A stretch of DNA of 64,000 nt from Minisyncoccia bacterium (GTDB taxonomy: Bacteria; Patescibacteriota; Minisyncoccia; Phycocordibacterales; Phycocordibacteraceae): assembly GCA_038207395.1 (NCBI GenBank), contig JBBQZW010000002.1, forward strand, positions 309 to 64,308. The letters run 5' to 3'. A program made the translations under genes and the position numbers. Shown here piece after piece: positions 2,889 through 48,311 of the stretch; the first letter of the stretch is position 1, and each line of letters begins with the position of its first letter. The notes under the pieces are model-generated. The model did no database searches, had not been told where the DNA came from, and worked only from the letters and a program-made list of their open reading frames with translations.

Positions 2889-3659
2889 CTATCTGATATC
2901 CGAGTAGGCTGAGCTGACTGGCTTTCCTGTAAACACAATGGCAAAGAAATTTATGAGATAGGCATACGCCACACTGACAAAACCTTCTTCTTTAAACCTG
3001 CGTCCAGATGTCGGCATAGTTATCTTTGAGGTGAAGATTACTTTCCCGAAAGCATGTGCTCTTCGTGCAATGTCAGTATCTTCGCCATAAAAAGCTATGT
3101 TTTCGTCAAACCCGCCCATCTGCAGCACTACTGCTTTACGTATAGCAAAGTTCCCTCCTGTTGCCATATACCCGAGGAAAAAATAAAGCGGCATAGCAAA
3201 TTTGTACCAAAGCCACACTAAATATTGATTGAAGACCGGAATATCGTAGTACTGATACGGACCGCTCATGCAGGCAAGTTTCTCATTATCTTCAAAAGCT
3301 TTCCGTACTTTTTTTGCCCAGCCAGGCGGCATTCGTGTATCGGCATCTATGTACGCAAGCACATCGCCTGTTGCTACCATAAGGCCGCGTTGACGAGCTT
3401 TCGTTAGTCCTTTTTCTAATTCAGAAACTACTTGCACGTCAGGAAATGATTCAGCAATACTTCGGGTTGTATCAGTACAATTATTATCTACAACAATAAC
3501 TTCCTTAAAAATACCGTTACTGTTCTTAGATACTGATTCTAGGCATGCGGCTATGTACTTTTCTTCATTGTAGGCTGGAATTATAAGACTAATGGAGAGC
3601 GGCTCGCGCTTAGGTAGCATGTTGCTAGCAGTATACCAAAAACGAACAAAGCCCCGCAC
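2889..3659 (-). CDS. Family 2 glycosyltransferase
   Basis: SLIIPAYNEEKYI...VVDNNCTDTT and YIDADT motifs. The true start may be the internal Met at about 3620. Confidence 0.75.
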   Translation of the reverse strand: MRGFVRFWYTASNMLPKREPLSISLIIPAYNEEKYIAACLESVSKNSNGIFKEVIVVDNNCTDTTRSIAESFPDVQVVSELEKGLTKARQRGLMVATGDVLAYIDADTRMPPGWAKKVRKAFEDNEKLACMSGPYQYYDIPVFNQYLVWLWYKFAMPLYFFLGYMATGGNFAIRKAVVLQMGGFDENIAFYGEDTDIARRAHAFGKVIFTSKITMPTSGRRFKEEGFVSVAYAYLINFFAIVFTGKPVSSAYSDIR

Positions 3660-7013: not shown

Positions 7014-7600
7014 AACAATTTTTTAAGTTTTTTGTGAACGGAAGCGTGACGATGCGATTAGGTATAGAAGGTGCATCGTACACACTCACGCGGTTTTATA
7101 ATTTCGATAAACGGAACATTCTTTCACACTATCCAACAGGGCGCATTGTCGACTCACGTCCCATCGGTTAGTTAGCAAACGCCATAAGCAATTCTGAGTC
7201 CATCCGTATAATCAAGTGCTTCAGTGCTGATGCCCGCCTCTATATATACAGACGGGCGGGCCGCATAAGGCTTACACGCTGAGTTATTAGCATGTGCCTT
7301 TGCGGCCTAACATTCTGCGCGGAACTACCCGCGCTATGGGTCCGACTATTTTTCGCACAGGGCGAATGAATAGCGGATGAATGTCAAAGTTCACTATCGT
7401 TCAGAATACGCACCATCCATTTCGGGATACTTATACAGTATAGCGAGTAGATATGCGTATTCCCGGTATTAAGAATGTGGATAACTACCTGATTACACGC
7501 CTAGGAGAAAGCAACGGAGTGCTTCCCAGGGAGAGAAATCAGGCCGCTACGACACCCAAGAAAGGTACCATTTTCATGAAGCGAAGTCAATGGCTGGCTA

Positions 7601-8386
7601 TTAAGGTGCGGCTGAGTAACTTGTCCAACGACGCTCCCCTGTTTTAACGACCTGCCCAGTATCTATGAGTGCTTGAAGCTCGCGCTGAATAGTTTTTTCA
7701 CTCACGTCTCGGATAAGCATTGATATATCTTTTATATAGGAAGGACCCTTCGATGTGAGTATTGAAAGTATGGCTTCACGACGATCCTGAGTCTTGTCTT
7801 TTATATGTCCTATAGATTGTCCTTTAGGATTTATTGCTGCTTTTTGTGCACGAGGACTTGGTACTCGAACTGGATCTGGAACGCGGGACTGATTTCCAAT
7901 CAAGCGCTCTGCTCCCACTTCTTTAGCGAGCGCAGCGAGCGAAGGTACCTCATCAAGAAAAAGACGAGGTTCTTCATAGGTGGCGATTTCCTGCAGGAGT
8001 TGCTGAGCCTCACGCGAGATTAGATCAGTGTTCATTGCTGATAGAAGTCCTCCGGTACGCGCTATCGACAAAACGCTTGAGAGAGCTAGAAGTTCGCGAG
8101 ACATGCTGTCACGCGCACTGAACGGAGGAAGTATCGCAGCCTCCACAAGCCCAACAGCAATACTATCCATCTTGTCGCGGAGAGCAGGTGCAGTGCGGAA
8201 CGCAGGTGAGACTAGATGAATCGCTTTTGCGAGTCGTTCTGCTTTTTTGTAGATATACACGCGACGTATGTCTTTTTCAAATATGTTTGAAAATATACTC
8301 TTTTCTAAGACAAAGTTATCAGATGCCGAACGAACGTCACTTCCTTTCGGATGAGAGAGTTCTTTATCGTGTCCTTTATTGTCCAT
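7601..8386 (-). CDS. Hypothetical protein with a C-terminal DeoR/HrcA-like winged HTH
   Basis: C-terminus ILSILTSKGPSYIKDISMLIRDVSEKTIQRELQALIDTGQVVKTGERRW matches the wHTH pattern. The N-terminal 190 aa are unassigned. Confidence 0.45.
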   Translation of the reverse strand: MDNKGHDKELSHPKGSDVRSASDNFVLEKSIFSNIFEKDIRRVYIYKKAERLAKAIHLVSPAFRTAPALRDKMDSIAVGLVEAAILPPFSARDSMSRELLALSSVLSIARTGGLLSAMNTDLISREAQQLLQEIATYEEPRLFLDEVPSLAALAKEVGAERLIGNQSRVPDPVRVPSPRAQKAAINPKGQSIGHIKDKTQDRREAILSILTSKGPSYIKDISMLIRDVSEKTIQRELQALIDTGQVVKTGERRWTSYSAAP

Positions 8387-8538: not shown

Positions 8539-10770
8539 ATGGCAAAGCGAAAGTCGAAGAAGCGAGACGCAGAAAATATGGACGCGCTAGTTACCTGGGC
8601 TAGCGGTGTTTTATTAATTGCGCTTGGACTTATACTCGCGCTTGGCGCGGCAGGGTACGCTACAGGCAGTAACTTTGGAGGTGATATCGGTAACCTTATT
8701 TTTACCTATACCTATCAGGGATTGGGTATAGCCGCCTTCCTCTTACCGATAGGTGTTGCTGCTGCTGGTATCGGTGTTCTTATGAAAAGCAGTTTCAAAC
8801 CAACACTCACCAGTGTTGGTTTTACGCTCATACTGCTTTCAGCACTTACGTTCCTCGGTGCGGTCGACCCGAATATCGAAGGAGGTGTTGGTCCCGGGGG
8901 TTTAGCAGGAACATGGGCAGGACTTGAGGCAATTCATCTCTTTGGATTTGCCGGAGCAGTCATACTTTTAAGTGCGCTTATATTAGTAGGCCTTGGTCTC
9001 GTAACTGACATACAGACTCTCTTCGCTCAGATTGGAGCGGTGGGCAGTAGAGCCGGTGAGGCACTTACCTCCATTAAGCTTCCTTCACGAAGTAAGGTGG
9101 AAGATAGCGATGAGGAAGATGCTGAAGAAGAACCTGTTGAAATTCCAGCTACAGGATCTGTTGAGACTACAGACGTTCCTGAGCGTGAACCTACCGTTAC
9201 CCATTTCAATGAAAACATTGCAACTGGAGGAATAGCACCCGGCGCTATTCCAAGTTTTGATGCTGAATATAACCCTCCTCCCCTTTCACTTCTTGGTGTT
9301 GATAAAGGAAAACCTGGAGTTGGTGATATTAAGGCAAATGCAAATATCATAAAGCGCACCTTTATTAACTTTGGTATTTCTGTGGAGATGGATGAAGTAT
9401 CTGTCGGACCAACAGTTACCCGCTACGCCATCAAACCTGCTGAAGGTGTCCGTCTTTCAAAGATAGTTGCCCTTCAGCAGAATCTTGAGCTTGCCCTTGC
9501 TGCGCATCCTGTTCGTATTGAAGCTCCTATTCCCGGTAAGTCGCTAGTAGGTATTGAGGTACCAAATGCATCAAAGGCAATGGTCGGTCTTGGTGGCATT
9601 ATGAATGCTCCTGAGTGGAATACGAGCACGAAGCCGCTCCTTGCCGCTATTGGGCGTGATATTGCCGGAACTCCTCATTACGTGAACGTTGCGAAGATGC
9701 CTCATGGTCTTATCGCAGGCGCTACAGGTTCTGGAAAGTCCGTTGCTATCCATGCAGTTATCGCTTCCCTCTTGTATCGAAATGGTCCAAATGCCCTTCG
9801 TTTTATTATGGTTGATCCTAAACGCGTTGAACTTACCCTTTATAACGGCATTCCTCATCTCCTTACGCCTGTAATTACGGATCCTAAAAAAGCCATCATG
9901 TCTCTCAAATGGGCAGCAAAAGAAATGGATCGCCGTTACGGCATCCTTGAAGGTGAACAGGTTCGCGATATTGATTCGTACCATAAAACGGTACTTGAGC
10001 CGGCAAAGAAGAAAGCTGAAAAGAATCCAGGGCTTGAGATTCCAGAAGCACTCCCCTACATCGTTATCGTTATCGATGAGCTCGCTGATATCATGCAGAC
10101 CTTCCCCCGTGAACTTGAAGCAGCTATCGTCCGCCTCGCACAGATGTCACGCGCTGTGGGTATTCACCTCATTCTTTCTACCCAACGTCCGTCCGTGAAC
10201 GTTATTACCGGTCTCATTAAAGCGAACGTTCCGACCCGTCTTGCCCTACAGGTTTCTTCTCAGATTGATTCACGTACTATTTTGGACACCGGTGGTGCTG
10301 AACAGCTTCTTGGTGCTGGTGACATGCTCTACATGAGCGCAGATATGCAAAAGCCGGTACGTGTCCAGACTGCATTTATTTCAGAAAGTGAGGTTAAAAA
10401 GGTTGCTCAATATATTAAGCAAAACAATGCAGGTAACCTCACCTCTATGGACCTCACGGGAGGTGCTGTGGCCGTACATGAGAATAACGACGCCGTGATG
10501 CTTGGTTCTGGTATGCAGGACATGATGGATGACGACAGCGATGATGACCTCTACATGGAAGCAAAGTCAGCGGTAGAGGAGGCTGGACGCGCTTCAACGT
10601 CCTATCTCCAGCGTAAGCTTCGTATCGGATACTCTCGTGCTGCCCGTCTTATGGATATCCTCGAAGAAAAAGGTGTTATTGGTCCTGCAGACGGATCCCG
10701 TCCCCGTGAAATCCTCAGCCAGGGTGGCTCTGGTGGAAGTGCTCCAGATACAGAAGAAGAGGATCTGTAG
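8539..10770 (+). CDS. ftsK: DNA translocase FtsK/SpoIIIE
   Basis: N-terminal TM region, Walker A GATGSGKSVAIHAVIASLL, DELAD Walker B and a C-terminal gamma (wHTH) domain YLQRKLRIGYSRAARLMDILEEKGVIGP. Confidence 0.9.
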   Translation: MAKRKSKKRDAENMDALVTWASGVLLIALGLILALGAAGYATGSNFGGDIGNLIFTYTYQGLGIAAFLLPIGVAAAGIGVLMKSSFKPTLTSVGFTLILLSALTFLGAVDPNIEGGVGPGGLAGTWAGLEAIHLFGFAGAVILLSALILVGLGLVTDIQTLFAQIGAVGSRAGEALTSIKLPSRSKVEDSDEEDAEEEPVEIPATGSVETTDVPEREPTVTHFNENIATGGIAPGAIPSFDAEYNPPPLSLLGVDKGKPGVGDIKANANIIKRTFINFGISVEMDEVSVGPTVTRYAIKPAEGVRLSKIVALQQNLELALAAHPVRIEAPIPGKSLVGIEVPNASKAMVGLGGIMNAPEWNTSTKPLLAAIGRDIAGTPHYVNVAKMPHGLIAGATGSGKSVAIHAVIASLLYRNGPNALRFIMVDPKRVELTLYNGIPHLLTPVITDPKKAIMSLKWAAKEMDRRYGILEGEQVRDIDSYHKTVLEPAKKKAEKNPGLEIPEALPYIVIVIDELADIMQTFPRELEAAIVRLAQMSRAVGIHLILSTQRPSVNVITGLIKANVPTRLALQVSSQIDSRTILDTGGAEQLLGAGDMLYMSADMQKPVRVQTAFISESEVKKVAQYIKQNNAGNLTSMDLTGGAVAVHENNDAVMLGSGMQDMMDDDSDDDLYMEAKSAVEEAGRASTSYLQRKLRIGYSRAARLMDILEEKGVIGPADGSRPREILSQGGSGGSAPDTEEEDL

Positions 10771-42915: not shown

Positions 42916-42988
42916 GGGCGATTAGCTCAGTTGGTAGAGCGCTTCATTTACACTGAAGATGTCGGGGGTTCGAGCCCTCCATCGCCCA
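42916..42988 (+). tRNA. tRNA-Val (anticodon TAC), no encoded CCA
   Basis: Hand-folded: acceptor GGGCGAT/ATCGCCC, anticodon loop TTTACAC, T-loop TTCGAGC. Confidence 0.8.
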
Positions 42989-42994
42989 CAAAAT

Positions 42995-43026
42995 AAAAAC
43001 AGACTGTCTTCAGACAGTCTGTTTTT
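42995..43026 (+). terminator. Intrinsic terminator (AAAAACAGACTGTC ttca GACAGTCTGTTTTT)
   Basis: 14 bp perfect stem plus a T-run, 7 nt after tRNA-Val. Confidence 0.7.
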
Positions 43027-43134
43027 ATATCTTTATGGGAGTGCCCCTCCACGGTATCGCACCGTGTCAGGTGAGGCAACGCAAGGGCCATTTGACGCAT
43101 TGAACACGAGCCAGTTCGATGCCTAACGGTAGGG

Positions 43135-43605
43135 TTGTAAATGAGACAAATGAGACACTACTCGCGCATGTCTGGAACTGTCTTATTTACGGCATTCTAG
43201 CAAGTAGAATAAGCGTATTTGAGCTTTTAAGCGTTGTCTCATAAGCATTTCAAACGAGCCACACGGTATCGCACTGGAATCCGACAAATCCGACACCATA
43301 AAAGCGAGAAATATTACAAATCTGACAGGGGGTACGCGAGGCGAAATGCCAACAAATGCCAATTTTTAACAATCTACCAGAGAGAAAATGGCACACTTTG
43401 GCACACATATACGGGGTGTGCCGACAGACTGTCTTTACCCGTCTCCCACATCTCTCCACGAGACAAATCCTCGCTATTCTGGGACTTTTGGGACAGCTCC
43501 ATGTTCCGAAGGGAGGGTGCCATTTTGTAGGGAAGAAATGATATAAAATGCAACGTCAGATTGGAGTTTCATCATGTTGCATTTCGGCAAAATGTGACAA
43601 AAGTG
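43135..43605. repeat. Non-coding array of tandemly duplicated 8-10 bp GACA/GCCA/GGCACA-core motifs (iteron-like)
   Basis: aatgagaca x2 (43140-43157); aatccgaca x2 (43278-43295); aaatgccaa(c/t) x2 (43345-43364); tggcacac x2 (43389-43406); gagacaaatcc (43460); tgggac x2 (43480-43495); (t/a)gtgaca x2 (43585-43600). No ORF exceeds noise level. Confidence 0.55.
43259..43275 (+). repeat. Direct repeat CCACACGGTATCGCACT (copy B). Copy A is CCACGGTATCGCACC at 43049-43063 and copy C is at 48179-48195.
   Basis: 17/17 identity between 43259-43275 and 48179-48195, and a 14 nt core at 43049-43063 that forms a CACGGT-n5-ACCGTG palindrome. Confidence 0.5.
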
Positions 43606-43637
43606 ACACGGGAATGCGGCATCCTACTGTCATTCTG

Positions 43638-45422
43638 TTACTTCTCTCCCAACACCTGAGATCGATACATTTGCGCATAAAGCCCGTCTTCCTTCATAAG
43701 TTCTGTATGGGTACCCTCCGCAGCCAGATTCCCTCCATCTAACACCAAGATATGATTGGCATTTCTAATAGTTGTAAACCGATGAGAAATAAAGAGGATT
43801 GTTATGTTATTGGGTAACATGCTGAGGTTTTGGAAAATAGCCTCCTCCGAAAGAGCGTCAATAGAACTTGTGGGTTCATCAAGCACAACAAAATTCGCGG
43901 CGCGTGAAAGAGTCCGTGCTATAGCAATCTTCTGGAACTGCCCTCCCGATAACTCTTTGCCGCCGTATTCAGAACTTTGCATTAAATCAAGGCCGGTTTC
44001 CTTGTCGATAATTGAGTCAGCGCTAGATTTTCTTAATAAGTCGTATATTTCGTCATCACTCAAGTCTTTTTTAGAAAAGAGTTCAATAGACTCTTTAATG
44101 GACAGGTAATCGTACCTAGAAAAATCCTGCATAAGCACTCCTAGGTTTTCATACCATGAAGCCAGGTCTACTTCTCGTAAGTCAACGCCGTTTATTAAAA
44201 TTCGACCGGCAGTCGGATCATACATCCTGAGAAGAAGCTTTATGAGAGTTGATTTACCAGCACCATTTAAACCAACGAGGGCAAGTTTCTCTCCAGAAGC
44301 TATCTCAAAAGAAATATCGTTTAGAACAAAATCCTCCTTCCCTGGATATCGGAATGAAACCGCATCAAACGTAATACTTATCTTAGAATCCGCAGGAAGC
44401 TTGACTGGGTTTTCTGTGATATCGATCATTGGTTTAGTGGCAAGGTAGTCTTTTACGTGCTTAATGTAGGGAATTGTCTCATTAATTTCACTTATGCTTT
44501 TGACTACTCCCGCCAGCGAAGAGTTAACGGAGTACAAGACACCAAAAGCAAATACTATTTCGCCAATGGAGAGAACTCCGAGATAACCTTGTAAGACTAT
44601 AAAGTACAACGCTCCGCCAATACTGGCTGTTTCAATAATTTTTACAGCAATATTCGGAACAATAAACTTTTTCTCAATACCGGTATCTTGCTCATATCTC
44701 TTATTTAAGAAGAGATCTATTTTGTTCAAAAGAGCCCACGTTCTGTTCGAAATAATTAATTCTTGTATGGTCCGTTTGGATTGAAACGAATCTCTCATTG
44801 ACCAGAACGCTCGCCTTTCAGTCGTGAGACTGTCCCAAGCCTCTCGTTTATTCCTTGTATAGAAAACTTCTAAAACAAATGCAGGTATTGTTCCTAAGAC
44901 AACTGAAAGTGCTGCGATAGGATGAATTGAGAAAATTATTCCTGCTCCAAGAATAAGCGCTATCAGCAGGCCAGTAAGTTGTGATATTTCATTAGGTAGA
45001 GCACGCAACTGATAAAGCGCTCGGTCGTAGACCTTGTTCTTAAGGTCTTGAAATTCTGGCTGTTCAATTCTACCTATATCAAGGCTTGCGTAGTGACGTA
45101 GCAGTAATTGAGTGTAGTGTCTTTCTTGCTTATCCGTGAAGACCGCGTTAATCAGTGACCAATTCAAATAGGTTAAAGTATCTCTTACTGCGGTAAAACT
45201 CAGCAGAATGAGTGCAGGTATGATGACTACCCAAATGCCTTCGTGAACTCTGGAAAATGAATCAATCAGATTACCTTGTAGCTTTGCATACACAATAAAG
45301 AATACGGAGAGTAGGATCGTAGCAATATTTGCAATGACGAATAAAAACGGAGATATCTTAAAAGATTGGAGAACTGACCACCACGCAAGTGATGTCGCAT
45401 CCCTTAAGCGGGTAATTCTCAT
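43638..45422 (-). CDS. ABC transporter, fused permease plus ATPase (exporter type)
   Basis: N-terminal 6-TM domain. Walker A GLNGAGKST, signature LSGGQFQKIAIARTL, Walker B FVVLDEPTSSID and an H-loop. Confidence 0.85.
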   Translation of the reverse strand: MRITRLRDATSLAWWSVLQSFKISPFLFVIANIATILLSVFFIVYAKLQGNLIDSFSRVHEGIWVVIIPALILLSFTAVRDTLTYLNWSLINAVFTDKQERHYTQLLLRHYASLDIGRIEQPEFQDLKNKVYDRALYQLRALPNEISQLTGLLIALILGAGIIFSIHPIAALSVVLGTIPAFVLEVFYTRNKREAWDSLTTERRAFWSMRDSFQSKRTIQELIISNRTWALLNKIDLFLNKRYEQDTGIEKKFIVPNIAVKIIETASIGGALYFIVLQGYLGVLSIGEIVFAFGVLYSVNSSLAGVVKSISEINETIPYIKHVKDYLATKPMIDITENPVKLPADSKISITFDAVSFRYPGKEDFVLNDISFEIASGEKLALVGLNGAGKSTLIKLLLRMYDPTAGRILINGVDLREVDLASWYENLGVLMQDFSRYDYLSIKESIELFSKKDLSDDEIYDLLRKSSADSIIDKETGLDLMQSSEYGGKELSGGQFQKIAIARTLSRAANFVVLDEPTSSIDALSEEAIFQNLSMLPNNITILFISHRFTTIRNANHILVLDGGNLAAEGTHTELMKEDGLYAQMYRSQVLGEK

Positions 45423-46552
45423 ATCGGATACTTATTCATAACTTCTATAAATTTAGCTTCCGTTTCAGGCGTAATTGCAGCGAAGAAGGGGGTCATGTTG
45501 TTGTCGAGTCCTGTGTCTGCAATATAGTGCTCCCGTGCGTAGTCCAAGTGCTTTTGAGTAAAAGTCTCATTACCCTTAAAACCAAAGTAATTTTTTAGTT
45601 GTGCCATCCGCTCGGTTATCTCCTCGGGCTTCTGTAGATAGTTTGCAAATCGGTTCTGGGGGTCTTCTGTGACAGCTACATTCTGGAGTTCTCTTAGAAC
45701 ATCGAGATCGAGAACAGATTGAATCTCAGTCGCGTCAGATCCTTGAAAATCCCGCATACCGTGTCCTTTCTCGTGAGCTTCAATAATCATTTTTTGCCGC
45801 ACAGTGAGAGGTCCACTCTCGCGCGACTCGCCATCAGAAAATACGACACCAGGCTCACCGATATTTCCCATGCCCGCGTTTGTGGGCTTCTTTCCGTATT
45901 CAGCCGCATTGCCTATCTGGGTATGGCTAAATATAGAATCGATATTCTTGTCGTAATTCTCAATCTGGCTTTCGTAGTGTGAGCGAAATTTCTTCGGCTT
46001 ATCGTAGAGCCCCACAGTCCCTTCTTTTAAAGAAGATAAAGCTTCTAATCTAGTGTCAAAAAACTTCTGCTTGATAGCTGGATCCCCTAACCTCTCCTGA
46101 AGCACTAATGTCCAGTGGCCTGGATAGTTTGCTTGCGAGCGAATAACTTCTGCTTCAAGCGCGTCTATATCAAAAGACTCTTGAGTTAAATCTTGATCAG
46201 AATTCAACCCTAATGACTCACGCACTTGAGACAGTTTTCCCCTAGAAGTCTCTTCTTTTAGCGAGGCCTCAAGCTTAGCTTCTGCCGCGGTTCTGTTGCT
46301 TTGATAAGCATTGATAGATTCCATTTCTGAACTCCTTTCTGGAGAAGGGTCACTCTGGTCTAAGTCCTCTAGACCATCTTTTTGTTTTTCCTCAGCAGGA
46401 AGGGGGCGGGGAGGATTCTCATTCATATTAGTAATTATAGCTTGAGACGTGAACTCGGGTGTAAGGTTCCCAACAACCCCTCCTGGACTCCCAGGACACT
46501 CTGCGTCATCCATTAGACCGTTATCAATAACGGCACAATATGGAAACAGCAA
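45419..46552 (-). CDS. Hypothetical protein with an HExxH motif (possible metallopeptidase-like), translationally coupled to the ABC exporter
   Basis: 377 aa [16 protein letters not shown] contains HExxH. The acidic N-terminal half is low-complexity. Its stop overlaps the ABC gene start (atga). Confidence 0.45.
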
Positions 46553-47865
46553 TGATTCAGGGCGGTTTTGGGGCTCCTACAGCTCCTATGGTGGCAGTAG
46601 CAGTTAAATACTGCCTATACGCCCGTAAGAGCACCGAGAGCGAAGAACAGCAGGTATTGAGCATTGATAGCCAAATCAAGGAAATGCTAGCGATGGCTGA
46701 GCGGGAGAAACTAGAGATTGTGGATATAAAGCGCGAGTCGCATTCCGCAAAGGAGGCTGGTGCGCGTCCCGTGTTCAACGAGATCGTAGAAGAGATACGG
46801 AGCGGCAAATATACCGGAGTCCTCACCTGGGCGCCAGATCGCATCTCGCGCAACGCCGGCGACCTCGGACGCATCGTGGACCTCATGGACCAAGGACTCC
46901 TGATCGATATCCGCACATACGGTCAGCAGTTTACGAACAACCCGAATGAGAAATTTCTCCTCATGATTCTTGGCTCGCAGGCGAAATTGGAGAACGATCA
47001 AAAGCGTATCAATGTGAAGCGCGGGCTGAAAGCGAGAGCGGAGATGGGGCTCTTCCCTTGCACTGCTCCAACCGGGTATATCAATGACAATCGCTCGGAT
47101 CATCGTTGCGAGATTGTCGTCGATACCATCCGCGCTCCTTTGATGAAGCAGATGTTCGAGAAAGTCGGAACTGAACGATGGAGTGGACGCAGAACTTATC
47201 TGTGGCTCAAGAACGATGCCCGCTTCACCGGAAAGAGCGGCAAGCCCTTAAGCCTGAGCAACGTATACAACCTCCTCCGCAATCCTTTCTATTGCGGCGT
47301 GTTCGAGTATCCGCGCGGCTCAGGAAGCTGGTATACCGGCAAGCACCAACCACTCATAGATCAAGAGTTATATCAGGCAGTGCAAGACAAACTTGCCGAA
47401 GAGACGAGAAAGAAGATAGCTCAAAACGATTTCACCTTCACCAAGCTCATGTCCTGCGGATTGTGCGGGAGTGGTATTACGGCGCAGGAGAAATCGAAAG
47501 CCCTCAAGGACGGTTCAACGAACTGGTACATCTACTACTCCTGCACAAAGAGTCGTGACAAAAATTGCAAGAACCCATTTATTCGCGAAGACCACCTCAT
47601 TACACAACTCCTCGCCATCATCGACCAGATATCCATCGACGAGATCGGCGCGCGAAATCTGATTGAGCGCGAGGTGCACCGATACAACACTCTGCGGGCA
47701 GAGGTTGAGGGTATGTCAGAAACAATGAAGGCTAAAGAGATGGACTTCAGGAAGTATGCAAAGTATCTCCTCAAGAACGGGAGCCGGATTGAACAGCGAG
47801 AGCTACTCGAACATCTAAAGGACCGGTTGGTATTACAAGACCGAATAGTTAGTCTCGGTGCTTGA
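46540..47865 (+). CDS. Large serine recombinase (resolvase/invertase catalytic domain, recombinase domain and zinc ribbon)
   Basis: Catalytic region [24 protein letters not shown] (Ser nucleophile context) and Cys cluster CGLCGSGIT...[12 protein letters not shown]. At 441 aa. Confidence 0.85.
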
Positions 47866-48139
47866 GCAATATTTCAGCAGGAGACAAGCCGTCGAGGAGG
47901 CGGTGCGGGAAGCAGTTCCAAGTGTCAGTAACGAGTTCAACAGCGTTACTTAGATTCGCAAGGTCGCCGGCATCAAACATCATGATGACGGACTGCATGT
48001 CATCGGTCTCCTCTTCTTCGTATATGGCAGCAAGCACGTCGGGAAGCGTGAAGTCGCTCCCTGTTTCTTTAAGGAGATCGATAATGTCTGCCTCTAATTC
48101 CTCACGGAATTCGAGCAACTCTTCCATGCTTTCGGGCAT
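47849..48139 (-). CDS. Small acidic hypothetical protein
   Basis: 96 aa Glu/Asp-rich ORF convergent with the recombinase gene. Confidence 0.35.
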
Positions 48140-48178
48140 GGAGAAATGATATGCGAAGGAAGTTTAGAGAGCAATCAC

Positions 48179-48195
48179 CCCACACGGTATCGCAC
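48179..48195 (+). repeat. Direct repeat CCACACGGTATCGCACT (copy C), 45 nt from tRNA-Arg
   Basis: Identical to 43259-43275. Confidence 0.5.
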
Positions 48196-48239
48196 TTTTT
48201 ATGAGGCCTCACGGTCGTTATTAAGGCCGCTGACTGCTG

Positions 48240-48311
48240 TGCCCTCACCTGGAATCGAACCAAGATCAAGAGCTTAGAAGTCTCCTGCTCTATCCATTGA
48301 GCTATGAGGGC
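48240..48311 (-). tRNA. tRNA-Arg (anticodon TCT), no encoded CCA
   Basis: Hand-folded: acceptor GCCCTCA/TGAGGGC, D-loop AATGGATA, anticodon loop CTTCTAA, T-loop TTCGATT. There is one A31-G39 mismatch in the anticodon stem. Confidence 0.7.

Follow-up and report, generated by a model that had tools for sequence, protein, structure and literature searches.

Doubled short repeats at the end of a tRNA-Arg-integrated island of a Minisyncoccia bacterium: most likely a protein docking row of a serine recombinase element

What is a dense row of doubled short motifs doing in non-coding DNA at one end of a recombinase-bearing island? The question is raised by positions 43135–43605 of the window, the whole 64,000-nt stretch of Minisyncoccia DNA that we analyzed. 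An initial annotation, made from the sequence alone, had described this region as an iteron-like array, its leading idea being that an integrated replicon had its iteron origin or partition centromere here, with a multi-subsite recombination or regulatory region as the last alternative. The comparative evidence favors that last alternative: judged from sequence comparison, the array is most likely a functional protein docking row for moving or controlling the island, and not a replication origin.

All the doubled motifs listed in the initial annotation are present, and a seventh pair had been overlooked, AATATTACA/AATCTGACA at 43310/43319. Tandem pairs were scored where 8 of 9 positions agreed between copies offset by 9–11 nt, with dinucleotide shuffles of the 471 bp as the null. 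The array contains five such pairs against a shuffle mean of 0.10 (maximum 2), and none of 2000 shuffles attained five, confirming the high density that had been claimed; counted as tandem 9–10-nt duplications, there are five to six where the shuffles predict 0.1. The remaining 63.5 kb of the window holds approximately 20 pairs by the 8-of-9 criterion, and 4 of the window's 26 exact tandem pairs sit within one 500-bp bin. The core first proposed for the motifs, G(A/C/G)(A/C)ACA, is only marginally enriched (3 versus 0.73 expected, P 0.04) and, as written, fails to match GAGACA. The frame that truly unites the motifs is instead AAT-NNN-ACA, for which the suggested motif count is clear: 8 in the array versus 0.07 expected (P 2e-14), with 18 plus-strand matches in the whole window. 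The helical-turn spacing holds within pairs (9–10 nt) and fails between them (32–138 nt). A single GAGACAAATCC at 43460 and the palindromes at 43423–43434 and 43546–43554/43576–43584 are as first listed.

That the array is non-coding was upheld: its short ORFs matched no protein family, and the corresponding region of L042 does not preserve them (loci compared with the window carry L numbers). A coding reading of the 41-codon ORF over unit 1 was rejected, the ORF being broken in L042 and without its start codon in L054. The suggested BLASTN search, run with 43000–43640 against phage and plasmid collections, returned no match, and searches of databases and literature found no description of such an array or arm. 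The 15-mer CACACGGTATCGCAC was also sought in viral contigs; its 23 occurrences there have unrelated flanks and are all due to chance. DNA-uptake sequences were ruled out, the motifs being found nowhere else in the 64 kb. Excision footprints, that is, target-site duplications of a 9-bp-duplicating transposon, were rejected because the pairs are conserved in distant elements and are accompanied by inverted partners. Likenesses to the LexA, MraZ, sigma-54, IHF and DnaA consensus sequences each suit at most one unit type.

The features of the locus, from left to right, are:

42916–42989, plus strand: tRNA-Val(tac) gene (ARAGORN; Rfam, 68.9 bits), the chromosomal left neighbor, outside the element.
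42993–43028, plus: tRNA-Val terminator hairpin, whose arm ACAGACTGTCTT recurs at 43424.
43041–43049, plus: island left terminus, GTGCCCCTC, a copy of the tRNA-Arg acceptor-stem end read on the plus strand; putative attL crossover core.
43050–43062, plus: repeat A, CACGGTATCGCAC, a tRNA T-arm mimic (tRNA: CTGGAATCGAAC); putative P′ half-site.
43118–43134, plus: motif m2, GATGCCTAACGGTAGGG, resembling the core and first T-stem bases, 71 nt after repeat A.
43139–43158, plus: unit 1, direct copies X1 and X2, AAATGAGAC AAATGAGAC AC (the first-listed pair, AATGAGACA twice, is at 43140/43149); 19-mer unchanged in 11 of 12 loci.
43179–43190, plus: inverted copy of unit 1, TGTCTTATTTAC, complementing GTAAATGAGACA at 11 of 12 positions.
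43234–43242, plus: second inverted copy of unit 1, TTGTCTCAT, from the inverted-repeat search; kept in L042.
43259–43275, plus: repeat B, CCACACGGTATCGCACT, a 17-mer identical to repeat C.
43278–43296, plus: unit 2, AATCCGACA AATCCGACA C (copies at 43278/43287), of a T-loop-like type; kept in L042.
43310–43328, plus: unit 3, AATATTACA AATCTGACA G (copies at 43310/43319), unequal copies, with an inverted copy GTCAGATT at 43555; kept in L042 and L054.
43344–43363, plus: unit 4, AAATGCCAAC AAATGCCAAT (copies at 43344/43354), partly complementary to unit 5; motif type also in L054 and L044.
43386–43422, plus: unit 5, AAATGGCACAC TTTGGCACAC then inverted GTGTGCC (pair first listed as TGGCACAC-TT-TGGCACAC at 43389/43399), with a further inverted copy AGGGTGCCATTTT at 43514–43526; type also in L088.
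43424–43435, plus: 12-mer ACAGACTGTCTT, identical to the tRNA-Val terminator arm.
43477–43496, plus: unit 6, TTCTGGGAC TTTTGGGAC AG (copies at 43477/43486); GGGAC type also in L044 and L088.
43546–43584, plus: single inverted repeat, AAATGCAAC ... GTTGCATTT; kept in L042.
43590–43609, plus: unit 7, AAATGTGACA AAAGTGACAC (copies at 43590/43600), the final array element; kept in L042 and L054.
43638–45422, minus: cargo, fused ABC exporter (permease and ATPase; Pfam, NCBIfam).
45419–46552, minus: cargo, 377-aa protein with an HEKGH motif and no family match.
46540–47865, plus: large serine recombinase, 441 aa, with Resolvase, Recombinase and Zn_ribbon_recom domains.
47849–48139, minus: 96-aa acidic ORF, conserved in L051, absent from L042.
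48180–48196, plus: repeat C, CCACACGGTATCGCACT, the same 17-mer as repeat B.
48203–48218, plus: motif m1, GAGGCCTCACGGTCGT, 23 nt after repeat C.
48230–48238, plus: island right terminus, CTGACTGCT, abutting the tRNA-Arg 3′ end; kept in L042, L051 and L044.
48239–48311, minus: tRNA-Arg(tct) gene (ARAGORN, Rfam), the integration target, its 3′ end toward the island.

The island, 5.2 kb from 43041 to 48238, has been inserted into a tRNA hotspot of a Parcubacteria-like genome, where the tRNA-Val and tRNA-Arg(tct) genes converge on it. In relatives these genes are 42–650 bp apart or have other genes or cargo between them, and L004, with the two tRNAs 42 bp apart and no island, represents the empty site. 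The flanks of the window, L042, L051 and L054 diverge right up to the left terminus at 43041. This terminus aligns to the tRNA-Arg end, its GTGCCCC having a counterpart at the right end, where the tRNA-Arg 3′ end has GTGCCC, and repeat A, present in three exact copies in the window, aligns in register with the tRNA. The locus thus has attL and attR with a short core shared with the target, and an empty site in relatives. Two elements lie in tandem in L044, joined right end-core-left end, and a minus-strand tRNA adjoins homologous recombinases in L042, L044, L045, L051, L054, L061 and L095. The chromosomal neighbors are rluA-like, rplS and tRNA genes; an exact look-up of the neighboring RluA-like protein found nothing on record. 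A minus-strand tRNA-like RNA was considered and rejected, the T-arm/acceptor mimic having no matching 5′ strand and ARAGORN finding nothing.

The 441-aa protein has the architecture of a large serine recombinase: resolvase catalytic, recombinase and Zn-ribbon domains (Pfam PF00239, 1.5e-21; PF07508, 6.6e-13; PF13408, 5.6e-9), with a YARKST motif at the start of the catalytic domain. Its closest solved structure is SPbeta SprA/YokA, covering residues 46–408, and its best NCBIfam matches, CcrB and XisF, are below the family cut-offs. Homologs at E ≤ 1e-30 number in the thousands and form a big, well-conserved family of the CPR. When an extra conserved DNA-binding region was sought in the recombinase, conservation proved even along the protein. 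Literature searches on CPR serine recombinases, RNA-guided serine recombinases and accessory-site serine integrases found nothing relevant.

Homologous left arms are present in approximately 15 other elements, always upstream of the recombinase and on its strand. The description of half-site-like repeats inside a recombinase island is supported. In L042, where the recombinase is 83% identical at the protein level and the cargo is different, the arm is 81% identical over 297 nt; further arms were found in L051, L054, L044, L104, L113, L121, L088, L092, L093, L072, L066, L063 and L095. The doubled AAT-type motifs assigned to arms all lie on the recombinase strand, 0.1–8.5 kb upstream of the recombinase, and are confined to the left-arm side. 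The arm is conserved and polar across the element family. Unit architecture and inter-site distances are conserved as well. Of 12 diverged loci whose flanks are approximately 50% identical, 11 keep the 19-mer AATGAGACAAATGAGACAC without change; across recombinases 58–100% identical, the A-to-m2 distance is 70–73 nt in five elements and the C-to-m1 distance 23–25 nt in six. The minimal element, L104, of approximately 1.7 kb, carries repeat A, m2, repeat B, a GAGACA unit, the recombinase, repeat C and m1, and the recombinase is its sole gene of at least 100 codons between the end repeats, the scan covering ORFs of that length. Unit number ranges from one (L051, L104, L113) to seven in the window, units 4–6 are absent from L042, and the order of units is common to the window, L042 and L054. 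Units 2–7 are dispensable, given that L051 carries unit 1 alone. Three IMG/VR contigs that have no recombinase homolog in the stretch examined likewise carry the GAGACA unit, in them next to a Zn-finger/HTH-like protein family; this family could be the true reader in those elements.

The basic unit consists of two direct copies followed by an inverted copy, mostly 19–21 nt further on. An exact inverted 6-mer lies within 120 nt in 17 of 34 units (0.03 expected per unit), at 18–21 nt in 12 of these 17. Several units (2, 6 and 7) have no inverted partner, none having been found for unit 2. The variable triplet is the same in X1, X2 and the inverted copy X′ of a unit and differs between units (GAG, GTT/GTG, GGC, CCG, GGG, TAG). 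In the inverted pairs ACA points inward, opposite to the subsites of res. A single reader protein fails to account for a triplet that is matched within the unit and different between units, or for an invariant GAGACA 19-mer while the att-proximal T-arm mimic follows the tRNA target.

Does this geometry belong to DNA or to RNA? Hairpins with a duplicated 5′ arm in two registers, formed in a non-coding RNA or in transferred or taken-up single-stranded DNA (for example, as priming or processing signals), would predict by base pairing the triplet match between direct and inverted copies. Complementarity sometimes reaches past the common frame (in L042, 16 perfect pairs; in the window, GTA/TAC; in L092, TCA/TGA), and C-to-T changes in the inverted copy retain a G:T pair in 3 of 12 GAGACA units. 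Such a structure is nevertheless unlikely. There is no strand asymmetry, because G:T and A:C mismatches in the inverted repeats are equal in number (25 versus 25), and the search for a strand-specific RNA signal in the array found none. The two strands fold no better than shuffles (z −1.67 and −1.73), RNAalifold gives only a 7-pair helix without compensatory change among orthologous units, and in the Rfam 15 covariance search only tRNA scores, the other hits being far below gathering and on the terminator. The first direct copy, superfluous for a hairpin, is as invariant as the second, the loop length peaks sharply at 19–21 nt, unlike in a plain hairpin, and no HUH or Rep-type enzyme that might use DNA hairpins is encoded. 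We therefore favor a double-stranded DNA reading of the units. A coded variant, in which the recombinase or a partner protein holds the AAT...ACA frame while the triplet acts through nucleic-acid pairing or sets mutually exclusive addresses, seems to us quite improbable; were it true, a serine recombinase would find in the arm a modular platform for docking or capture, in an integron-like or heterospecific-site system by which CPR elements stack and swap cargo at tRNA genes.

Among double-stranded readings, the units might instead be operators for one or more sequence-specific transcription regulators, encoded by the element, a helper or the host, which would control rightward transcription from the left end, the recombinase not being the reader. 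A GAGACA unit lies 0–100 nt upstream of a plus-strand gene start in L113, L121, L131, L132, L133 and L104, the downstream gene in L104 being the recombinase, and ...CACTATAAAAAGGG is conserved after the second copy in many loci. The Zn-finger/HTH-like family co-occurs with the unit in L113, L121, L131 and L132, and several regulators would account for several motif types. Two direct sites with an inverted site approximately 20 bp away are a common operator layout. We consider this reading unlikely, since what comes after the array in the window, L088 and L093 is no gene start but a convergent gene's 3′ end, and neither the window's island nor L104 encodes a candidate regulator. A scan of the array for sigma-70-type consensus found one promoter-like site versus 1.8 expected, and the TATAAA-like box is too near the repeats for a −35/−10 arrangement, and unit 1 lacks it in the window, L042 and L054. 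A −35/−10 layout judged by eye on both strands, with a fitting 16 nt in L113 and L072 and an unfitting 9–14 nt in L088, L132 and L133, was dropped because the spacing suits some loci only. In several distant elements the unit is directly upstream of a gene, a position that suits an operator no less than a recombination subsite.

The array could also be a field of scars, left-end remnants of successive related integrations at one tRNA that are largely functionless today. Accretion of this kind is visible in L044 (decayed recombinase gene, right end, core, left end of the second element), unit number varies from one to seven with units 4–6 missing in L042, and repeats A, B and C might be traces of old junctions. 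This is very unlikely given that the arm is 81% identical between the window and L042, with recombinase proteins 83% identical, that unit order is shared by the window, L042 and L054, and that the A...m2...B...C...m1 layout recurs with its distances in L104, whose recombinase is 58% identical; moreover, repeats B and C lack the preceding right-end/core junction of the L044 tandem. Least tenable, and extremely improbable, is the origin or centromere with which the initial annotation led. In its favor is a superficial likeness: direct repeats approximately one helical turn apart, accompanied by inverted copies, recall iterons plus operator or a parC-like site. The suggested search of the island for Rep or ParB-like proteins found none encoded, ParA and ParR are likewise missing, tests of the island ORFs for parA/parB/parR partition domains found none, and neither the island nor the minimal element has a Rep, Par, primase or helicase gene. 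The pairs belong to seven unlike motifs of 9–10 nt, in place of three or more identical iterons of 17–22 bp; GC is 0.40–0.54 with no AT-rich stretch, there is no DnaA box, and no plasmid or phage record is similar. The same arm occurs in L104, with its lone recombinase gene. The annotation had itself doubted a chromosomal oriC, correctly: the skew falls steadily at 43 kb, the cumulative GC skew that it proposed to examine makes no turn there, no DnaA boxes cluster, and the neighbors are the rluA-like, rplS and tRNA genes. The array thus has the makings of neither an iteron origin, a parS/parC site nor a chromosomal oriC.

The best reading takes the units for double-stranded subsites to which protein binds, within a complex attachment site whose probable reader is the recombinase; it is tentative, and we assign it a probability of roughly 0.45. 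Several observations speak against it: the ACA-inward orientation of the inverted pairs, the units with no inverted partner, the triplets matched within units and the invariant GAGACA 19-mer described above, the IMG/VR occurrences beside the Zn-finger/HTH-like family, the units directly upstream of genes, the dispensability of units 2–7 and the simple att sites of the known enzymes. Both ends of the island show conserved extra sites, namely repeats A, B and C, motifs m1 and m2, and the units. We infer that a protein rather than an RNA reads the sites, that this protein is the recombinase and that the outcome is control of recombination. In the arm, sequences that mimic the T-arm and the acceptor end of the tRNA stand at conserved distances, and the natural target half-site in the tRNA T-loop, GGAATCGAACC, has the AAT-NNN-AC frame found in the units. 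The large serine recombinase would have put the 5.2-kb island at the 3′ end of tRNA-Arg(tct), and the arm would be a multi-subsite attachment region, attL when integrated and part of attP once excised. Its short sites would fall into three classes in a single orientation relative to the crossover core: tRNA T-arm mimics (repeats A, B and C), core mimics (m1 and m2) and the doubled AAT-NNN-ACA units 1–7, many with an inverted copy, usually approximately 20 nt past the second direct copy. These sites would most probably be docking DNA for extra recombinase subunits, which may build a higher-order complex on the element end that governs synapsis, recombination direction and/or recombinase expression; the accessory sites of res for Sin and Tn3 resolvase and the subterminal repeats of IS607 offer precedents.

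Large serine recombinases are not known to use accessory sites; those described to date act on simple att sites of 40–50 bp. Enzymes of the SPbeta SprA, SCC CcrB and phiC31/Bxb1 type share the Resolvase/Recombinase/Zn-ribbon domains and the short attL/attR core with the island; these canonical systems have minimal att sites, whereas the island has extra sites at fixed distances at both ends and the unit array. The inverted motif TGT-NNN-ATT may resemble resolvase half-sites, that of gamma-delta being TGTCYNNTA. In the res sites (Sin site II, Tn3/gamma-delta sites II and III), short motifs are repeated beside the crossover site as in the array, for which binding is putative. The present enzyme is, however, a large serine recombinase of the integrase type and not a small resolvase, its sites reach approximately 560 bp from the core versus approximately 100 bp in res, and they comprise up to seven sequence types with inverted pairs facing the opposite way. 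At Sin site II, head-to-tail direct repeats are bound by a catalytically inactive dimer that drives synapsis (PMC2428073). In the IS607 family, many serine-recombinase dimers bind cooperatively to short direct subterminal motifs of varying spacing and assemble into a filament, by which the other element end is captured (PMC6188088). The island resembles IS607 in its direct short motifs near the element end, and L104 (approximately 1.7 kb) is IS-like; IS607 differs in its TnpA, which has an N-terminal MerR-like DNA-binding domain and no Zn ribbon, and in having no tRNA target, no core duplication and motifs of one sequence type. The attP arm sites of lambda-like tyrosine integrases are also found in tRNA-targeting elements as tandem direct repeats with a spacing of approximately 10 bp, which lie at tens to hundreds of bp distance from the core and on the element side only, as here. 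Lambda arm-type sites confer directionality. Tyrosine integrases are nevertheless another enzyme family with a dedicated arm-binding domain, of which none is evident in the 441-aa recombinase. Iterons and parC centromeres share with the array clustered direct repeats near one helical turn and inverted copies, while the array has no initiator or partition gene, AT-rich unwinding element or DnaA box, and its pairs are of unlike sequence.

The mobile elements of the CPR/Patescibacteria, with their tiny genomes, are barely described, and what emerges here is a widespread family of islands that target tRNA genes in this group, ranging from an IS-like form of 1.7 kb to cargo islands exceeding 9 kb. 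A complex, conserved attachment region with multiple subsites can accompany a large serine recombinase. The appeal of these enzymes as genome-engineering tools comes precisely from the supposed simplicity of their sites. Biochemistry has concrete substrates in the invariant 19-mer and the conserved inter-site distances, and if the accessory units set direction or efficiency without a separate directionality factor, this would be both new biology and a new design principle.

The array of paired short repeats at 43135-43605 is, with a probability of about 0.85, the conserved left arm of a recombinase island that integrates at a tRNA gene. The array lies between a tRNA gene and the first gene of the island's cargo.

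Features of the gap holding the array and of the island (window coordinates)
42916-42989, + strand: tRNA-Val(tac), left of the gap
42993-43028: terminator of tRNA-Val, left border of the gap
43000-43637: 640-bp gap holding the array, between the tRNA-Val terminator and the ABC-exporter stop codon
43638, - strand: stop codon of the ABC-exporter gene, right border of the gap
43638-46552: cargo, a fused ABC exporter and a 377-aa protein (HEKGH, an HExxH motif; no family match)
47849-48139, - strand: 96-aa very acidic ORF between the recombinase and the right end

All motif pairs listed in the initial annotation are present in the gap, with an additional pair at 43310/43319. With 8/9 matching positions required and the copies offset by 9-11 nt, five pairs were found in 471 bp, against a mean of 0.10 and a maximum of 2 in 2000 dinucleotide shuffles; the other 63.5 kb of the window holds about 20. 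The core formerly proposed, G(A/C/G)(A/C)ACA, does not cover GAGACA and is only slightly enriched (3 versus 0.73 expected). The frame common to the motifs is AAT-NNN-ACA, which has 8 of its 18 plus-strand matches in the 64 kb within the array (0.07 expected, P = 2e-14). The claim of a repeat density above chance stands. So does the description of the region as non-coding: the short ORFs of the gap have neither a protein-family match nor conservation. An Rfam search of the gap returned no family match. The 12-mer ACAGACTGTCTT of the tRNA-Val terminator stem (42999-43010) has an exact second copy inside the array (43424-43435).

The host genome is, by sequence, a Parcubacteria-like member of the CPR/Patescibacteria; the best relatives of a neighboring RluA-like protein (63-84% identity) are from such MAGs. 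The genes for tRNA-Val and tRNA-Arg(tct) adjoin and converge in these relatives; the distance between them is 42 bp in locus L004, about 230-650 bp in L011, L008, and L002 (with unrelated genes between them in L002), and 2.3 kb in L001, where an SPFH-like gene and a gene of about 400 aa, both unrelated, intervene. In the window they are separated by 5.25 kb. This tRNA pair (42916-48311) is a hypervariable hotspot, and the recombinase island occupies it in the window and in the related loci L042 and L051. The insert, with a GC content of 0.39, lower than its surroundings, contains the array, the exporter, the 377-aa protein, a 441-aa large serine recombinase, and the acidic ORF. The domains of the recombinase are Resolvase, Recombinase, and Zn-ribbon, and the solved structure nearest to it is SPbeta SprA. 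The insert starts with GTGCCCCTC, which copies the tRNA-Arg 3′ end in plus-strand reading, and ends with CTGACTGC, abutting tRNA-Arg; the chromosomal flanks of the window, L042, L051, and L054 are unlike one another right up to GTGCCCC. The exporter and the 377-aa protein might work together in export or as a protease pair. The 13 nt at 46540-46552 belong both to the start of the recombinase ORF and to that of the divergent 377-aa ORF, which opens with TTG there but probably has its true start further downstream. The acidic ORF, kept in L051 (~7430-7705) and absent from L042, could encode a directionality factor or a DNA mimic.

The recurring sites of the arm fall into three classes. The repeat CACGGTATCGCAC occurs three times exactly and in direct orientation, at 43050 (A), 43262 (B), and 48183 (C), where about 0.002 copies of one 13-mer are expected by chance; B and C are identical over 17 nt. 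All three line up in register with the target tRNA's T-arm (GGTATCGCAC versus GGAATCGAAC), and their equivalents in elements at tRNA-Gly are CTCG.GGTTGCGAAC. Motifs m1 and m2, GA.GCCT-NN-CGGT, resemble the core (the putative crossover) plus the first T-stem bases. Among elements with recombinases 58-100% identical, the spacing is 70-73 nt from A to m2 (5 elements) and 23-25 nt from C to m1 (6 elements). The third class, the units, consists of direct copies X1 and X2 9-10 nt apart, in many cases with an inverted copy X′. In a set of 34 units, drawn from the window and 17 other loci, an exact inverted 6-mer lies within 120 nt in 17 units (0.03 expected per unit), and 12 of these 17 inverted copies begin 18-21 nt past X2. 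A limited set of unit types reappears in distant elements: GAGACA (11 units), GTTACA/GTGACA, GGCACA, CCGACA/CCGAACA, TGCCAA, GGGAC, and TAGACA. Of 12 loci whose flanks average 50% column identity, 11 keep AATGAGACAAATGAGACAC unchanged. The seven units of the window are the longest array seen; L051, L104, L113, and L121 have one each.

The recombinase belongs, judging from its homologs, to a very large and well-conserved CPR family, with 120 listed at 59-100% identity and at least 8000 proteins at E ≤ 1e-30. A minus-strand tRNA (Arg-tct, Gly, or Ser) lies about 100-400 bp beyond the recombinase gene in L042, L044, L045, L051, L054, L061, and L095. In L042, where the tRNA pair is the same, the recombinase is 83% identical, the cargo genes are unlike those of the window, and a homologous arm (81% identity over 297 nt and 78% over 79 nt) keeps units 1, 2, 3, and 7 and lacks units 4-6. 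A search by homology and motif of 80 metagenome loci and of loci fetched earlier by protein look-up gave further arms in L051, L054, L044, L104, L113, L121, L088, L092, L093, L072, L066, L063, and L095. The doubled AAT-type motifs assigned to arms are all on the recombinase strand, 0.1-8.5 kb upstream of its gene, and no second motif cluster was found at the right end of the elements compared. The minimal element, L104 (~1.7 kb), has the recombinase as its only gene of at least 100 codons between the end repeats, with a unit about 100 nt upstream. In L044 (4600-5330), a decayed recombinase (a C-terminal remnant) and right end are followed by the core TGTGCCCCC and then by another element, which is intact and begins with its left end; the two elements are joined through the core, which shows tandem accretion at a tRNA-Gly. 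In L051, whose element has unit 1 only, the core sequence is present as a palindrome, GTGCCCCTCCTATAGAGGGGCAC (3157-3179), some 120 nt in from the left end. A diversity-generating retroelement (bAvd and reverse transcriptase) directly upstream of a 73%-identical recombinase in L045, L046, and L047 (e.g., L045 5452-6862) is presumably cargo of a related island.

The units are probably read as double-stranded DNA by a protein; the narrow 19-21-nt gap and strict 9-10-nt period suggest geometry on a duplex. Pairing of RNA or single-stranded DNA would account for complementarity that in places reaches past the shared frame, with 16 perfect pairs in L042 and three extra in the window and L092, but this explanation is weakened by several results. 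Mismatches in the inverted repeats are 25 G:T versus 25 A:C, so neither strand is favored as RNA; neither strand of the 486-nt array outdoes its shuffles in folding (z = -1.67 and -1.73); for the GAGACA units, RNAalifold gave a single 7-pair helix with zero compensatory changes; and X1 is as invariant as X2, although a hairpin needs no X1.

As to the reader, a complex attachment site is favored because the recombinase is shared by the elements examined, the half-site frame matches, and precedents exist. The recombinase is the only protein common to all elements examined for gene content. The half-site that it targets within the tRNA gene, GGAATCGAACC, shows the AAT-NNN-AC frame, oriented to the core as in repeats A-C and the X motifs, and the CCGA(A)CA unit type nearly equals the T-loop sequence. 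The serine recombinase Sin uses head-to-tail accessory repeats at its site II (PMC2428073), and IS607-family serine recombinases use a series of short, directly repeated subterminal motifs from which a filament is nucleated (PMC6188088); the arm resembles the former in its candidate accessory repeats and the latter in its short direct motifs near an element end. The extra subsites would bind the recombinase and control synapsis, direction, or expression. This full model of recombinase-bound accessory sites controlling recombination is tentative, at slightly under even odds. Large serine recombinases are not known to depend on accessory sites, which argues against this model, and a single reader leaves the matched triplets and the invariance of the GAGACA 19-mer unexplained. 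Also arguing against it, three IMG/VR contigs have the GAGACA unit in a fetched stretch without a recombinase homolog, adjoining a Zn-finger/HTH-like protein family missing from the window. This family (L113 1247-1873; L131 1590-2126; L121 2736-3407; L132; L129; L125) has 180-220 aa, CxxC...CxxC, an excisionase-like C-terminal helix-turn-helix pattern, and no Pfam match; both distant elements and viral contigs have it together with the GAGACA unit. In L125, the C-terminal part of such a protein is joined to the recombinase ORF. In several distant elements, moreover, a unit stands immediately ahead of a gene start, a position that suits an operator just as well. The IMG/VR contig L133 carries a duplication of more than 400 nt with the GAGACA unit (reverse strand 1-430 and 9120-9550, copies 9.1 kb apart) that could represent element ends or an assembly repeat.

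The initial annotation had offered a replication origin or partition centromere beside recombination or regulatory subsites. The latter part is retained, and the former is very improbable. No Rep, Par, primase, or helicase is encoded in the island or, among genes of at least 100 codons, in the minimal element; the repeat pairs differ from one another in sequence and do not form arrays of a single iteron; the region lacks an AT-rich stretch and a DnaA box; cumulative GC skew shows no turn at 43 kb; and BLASTN searches of phage and plasmid collections gave no match.

The arm and its element family are undescribed in Rfam, in annotated phage and plasmid records, and in the literature searched, and the matched variable triplets are explained by none of the known systems compared. 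The array is best filed with the accessory-site arrays of site-specific recombination systems, here with a large serine recombinase in CPR bacteria.
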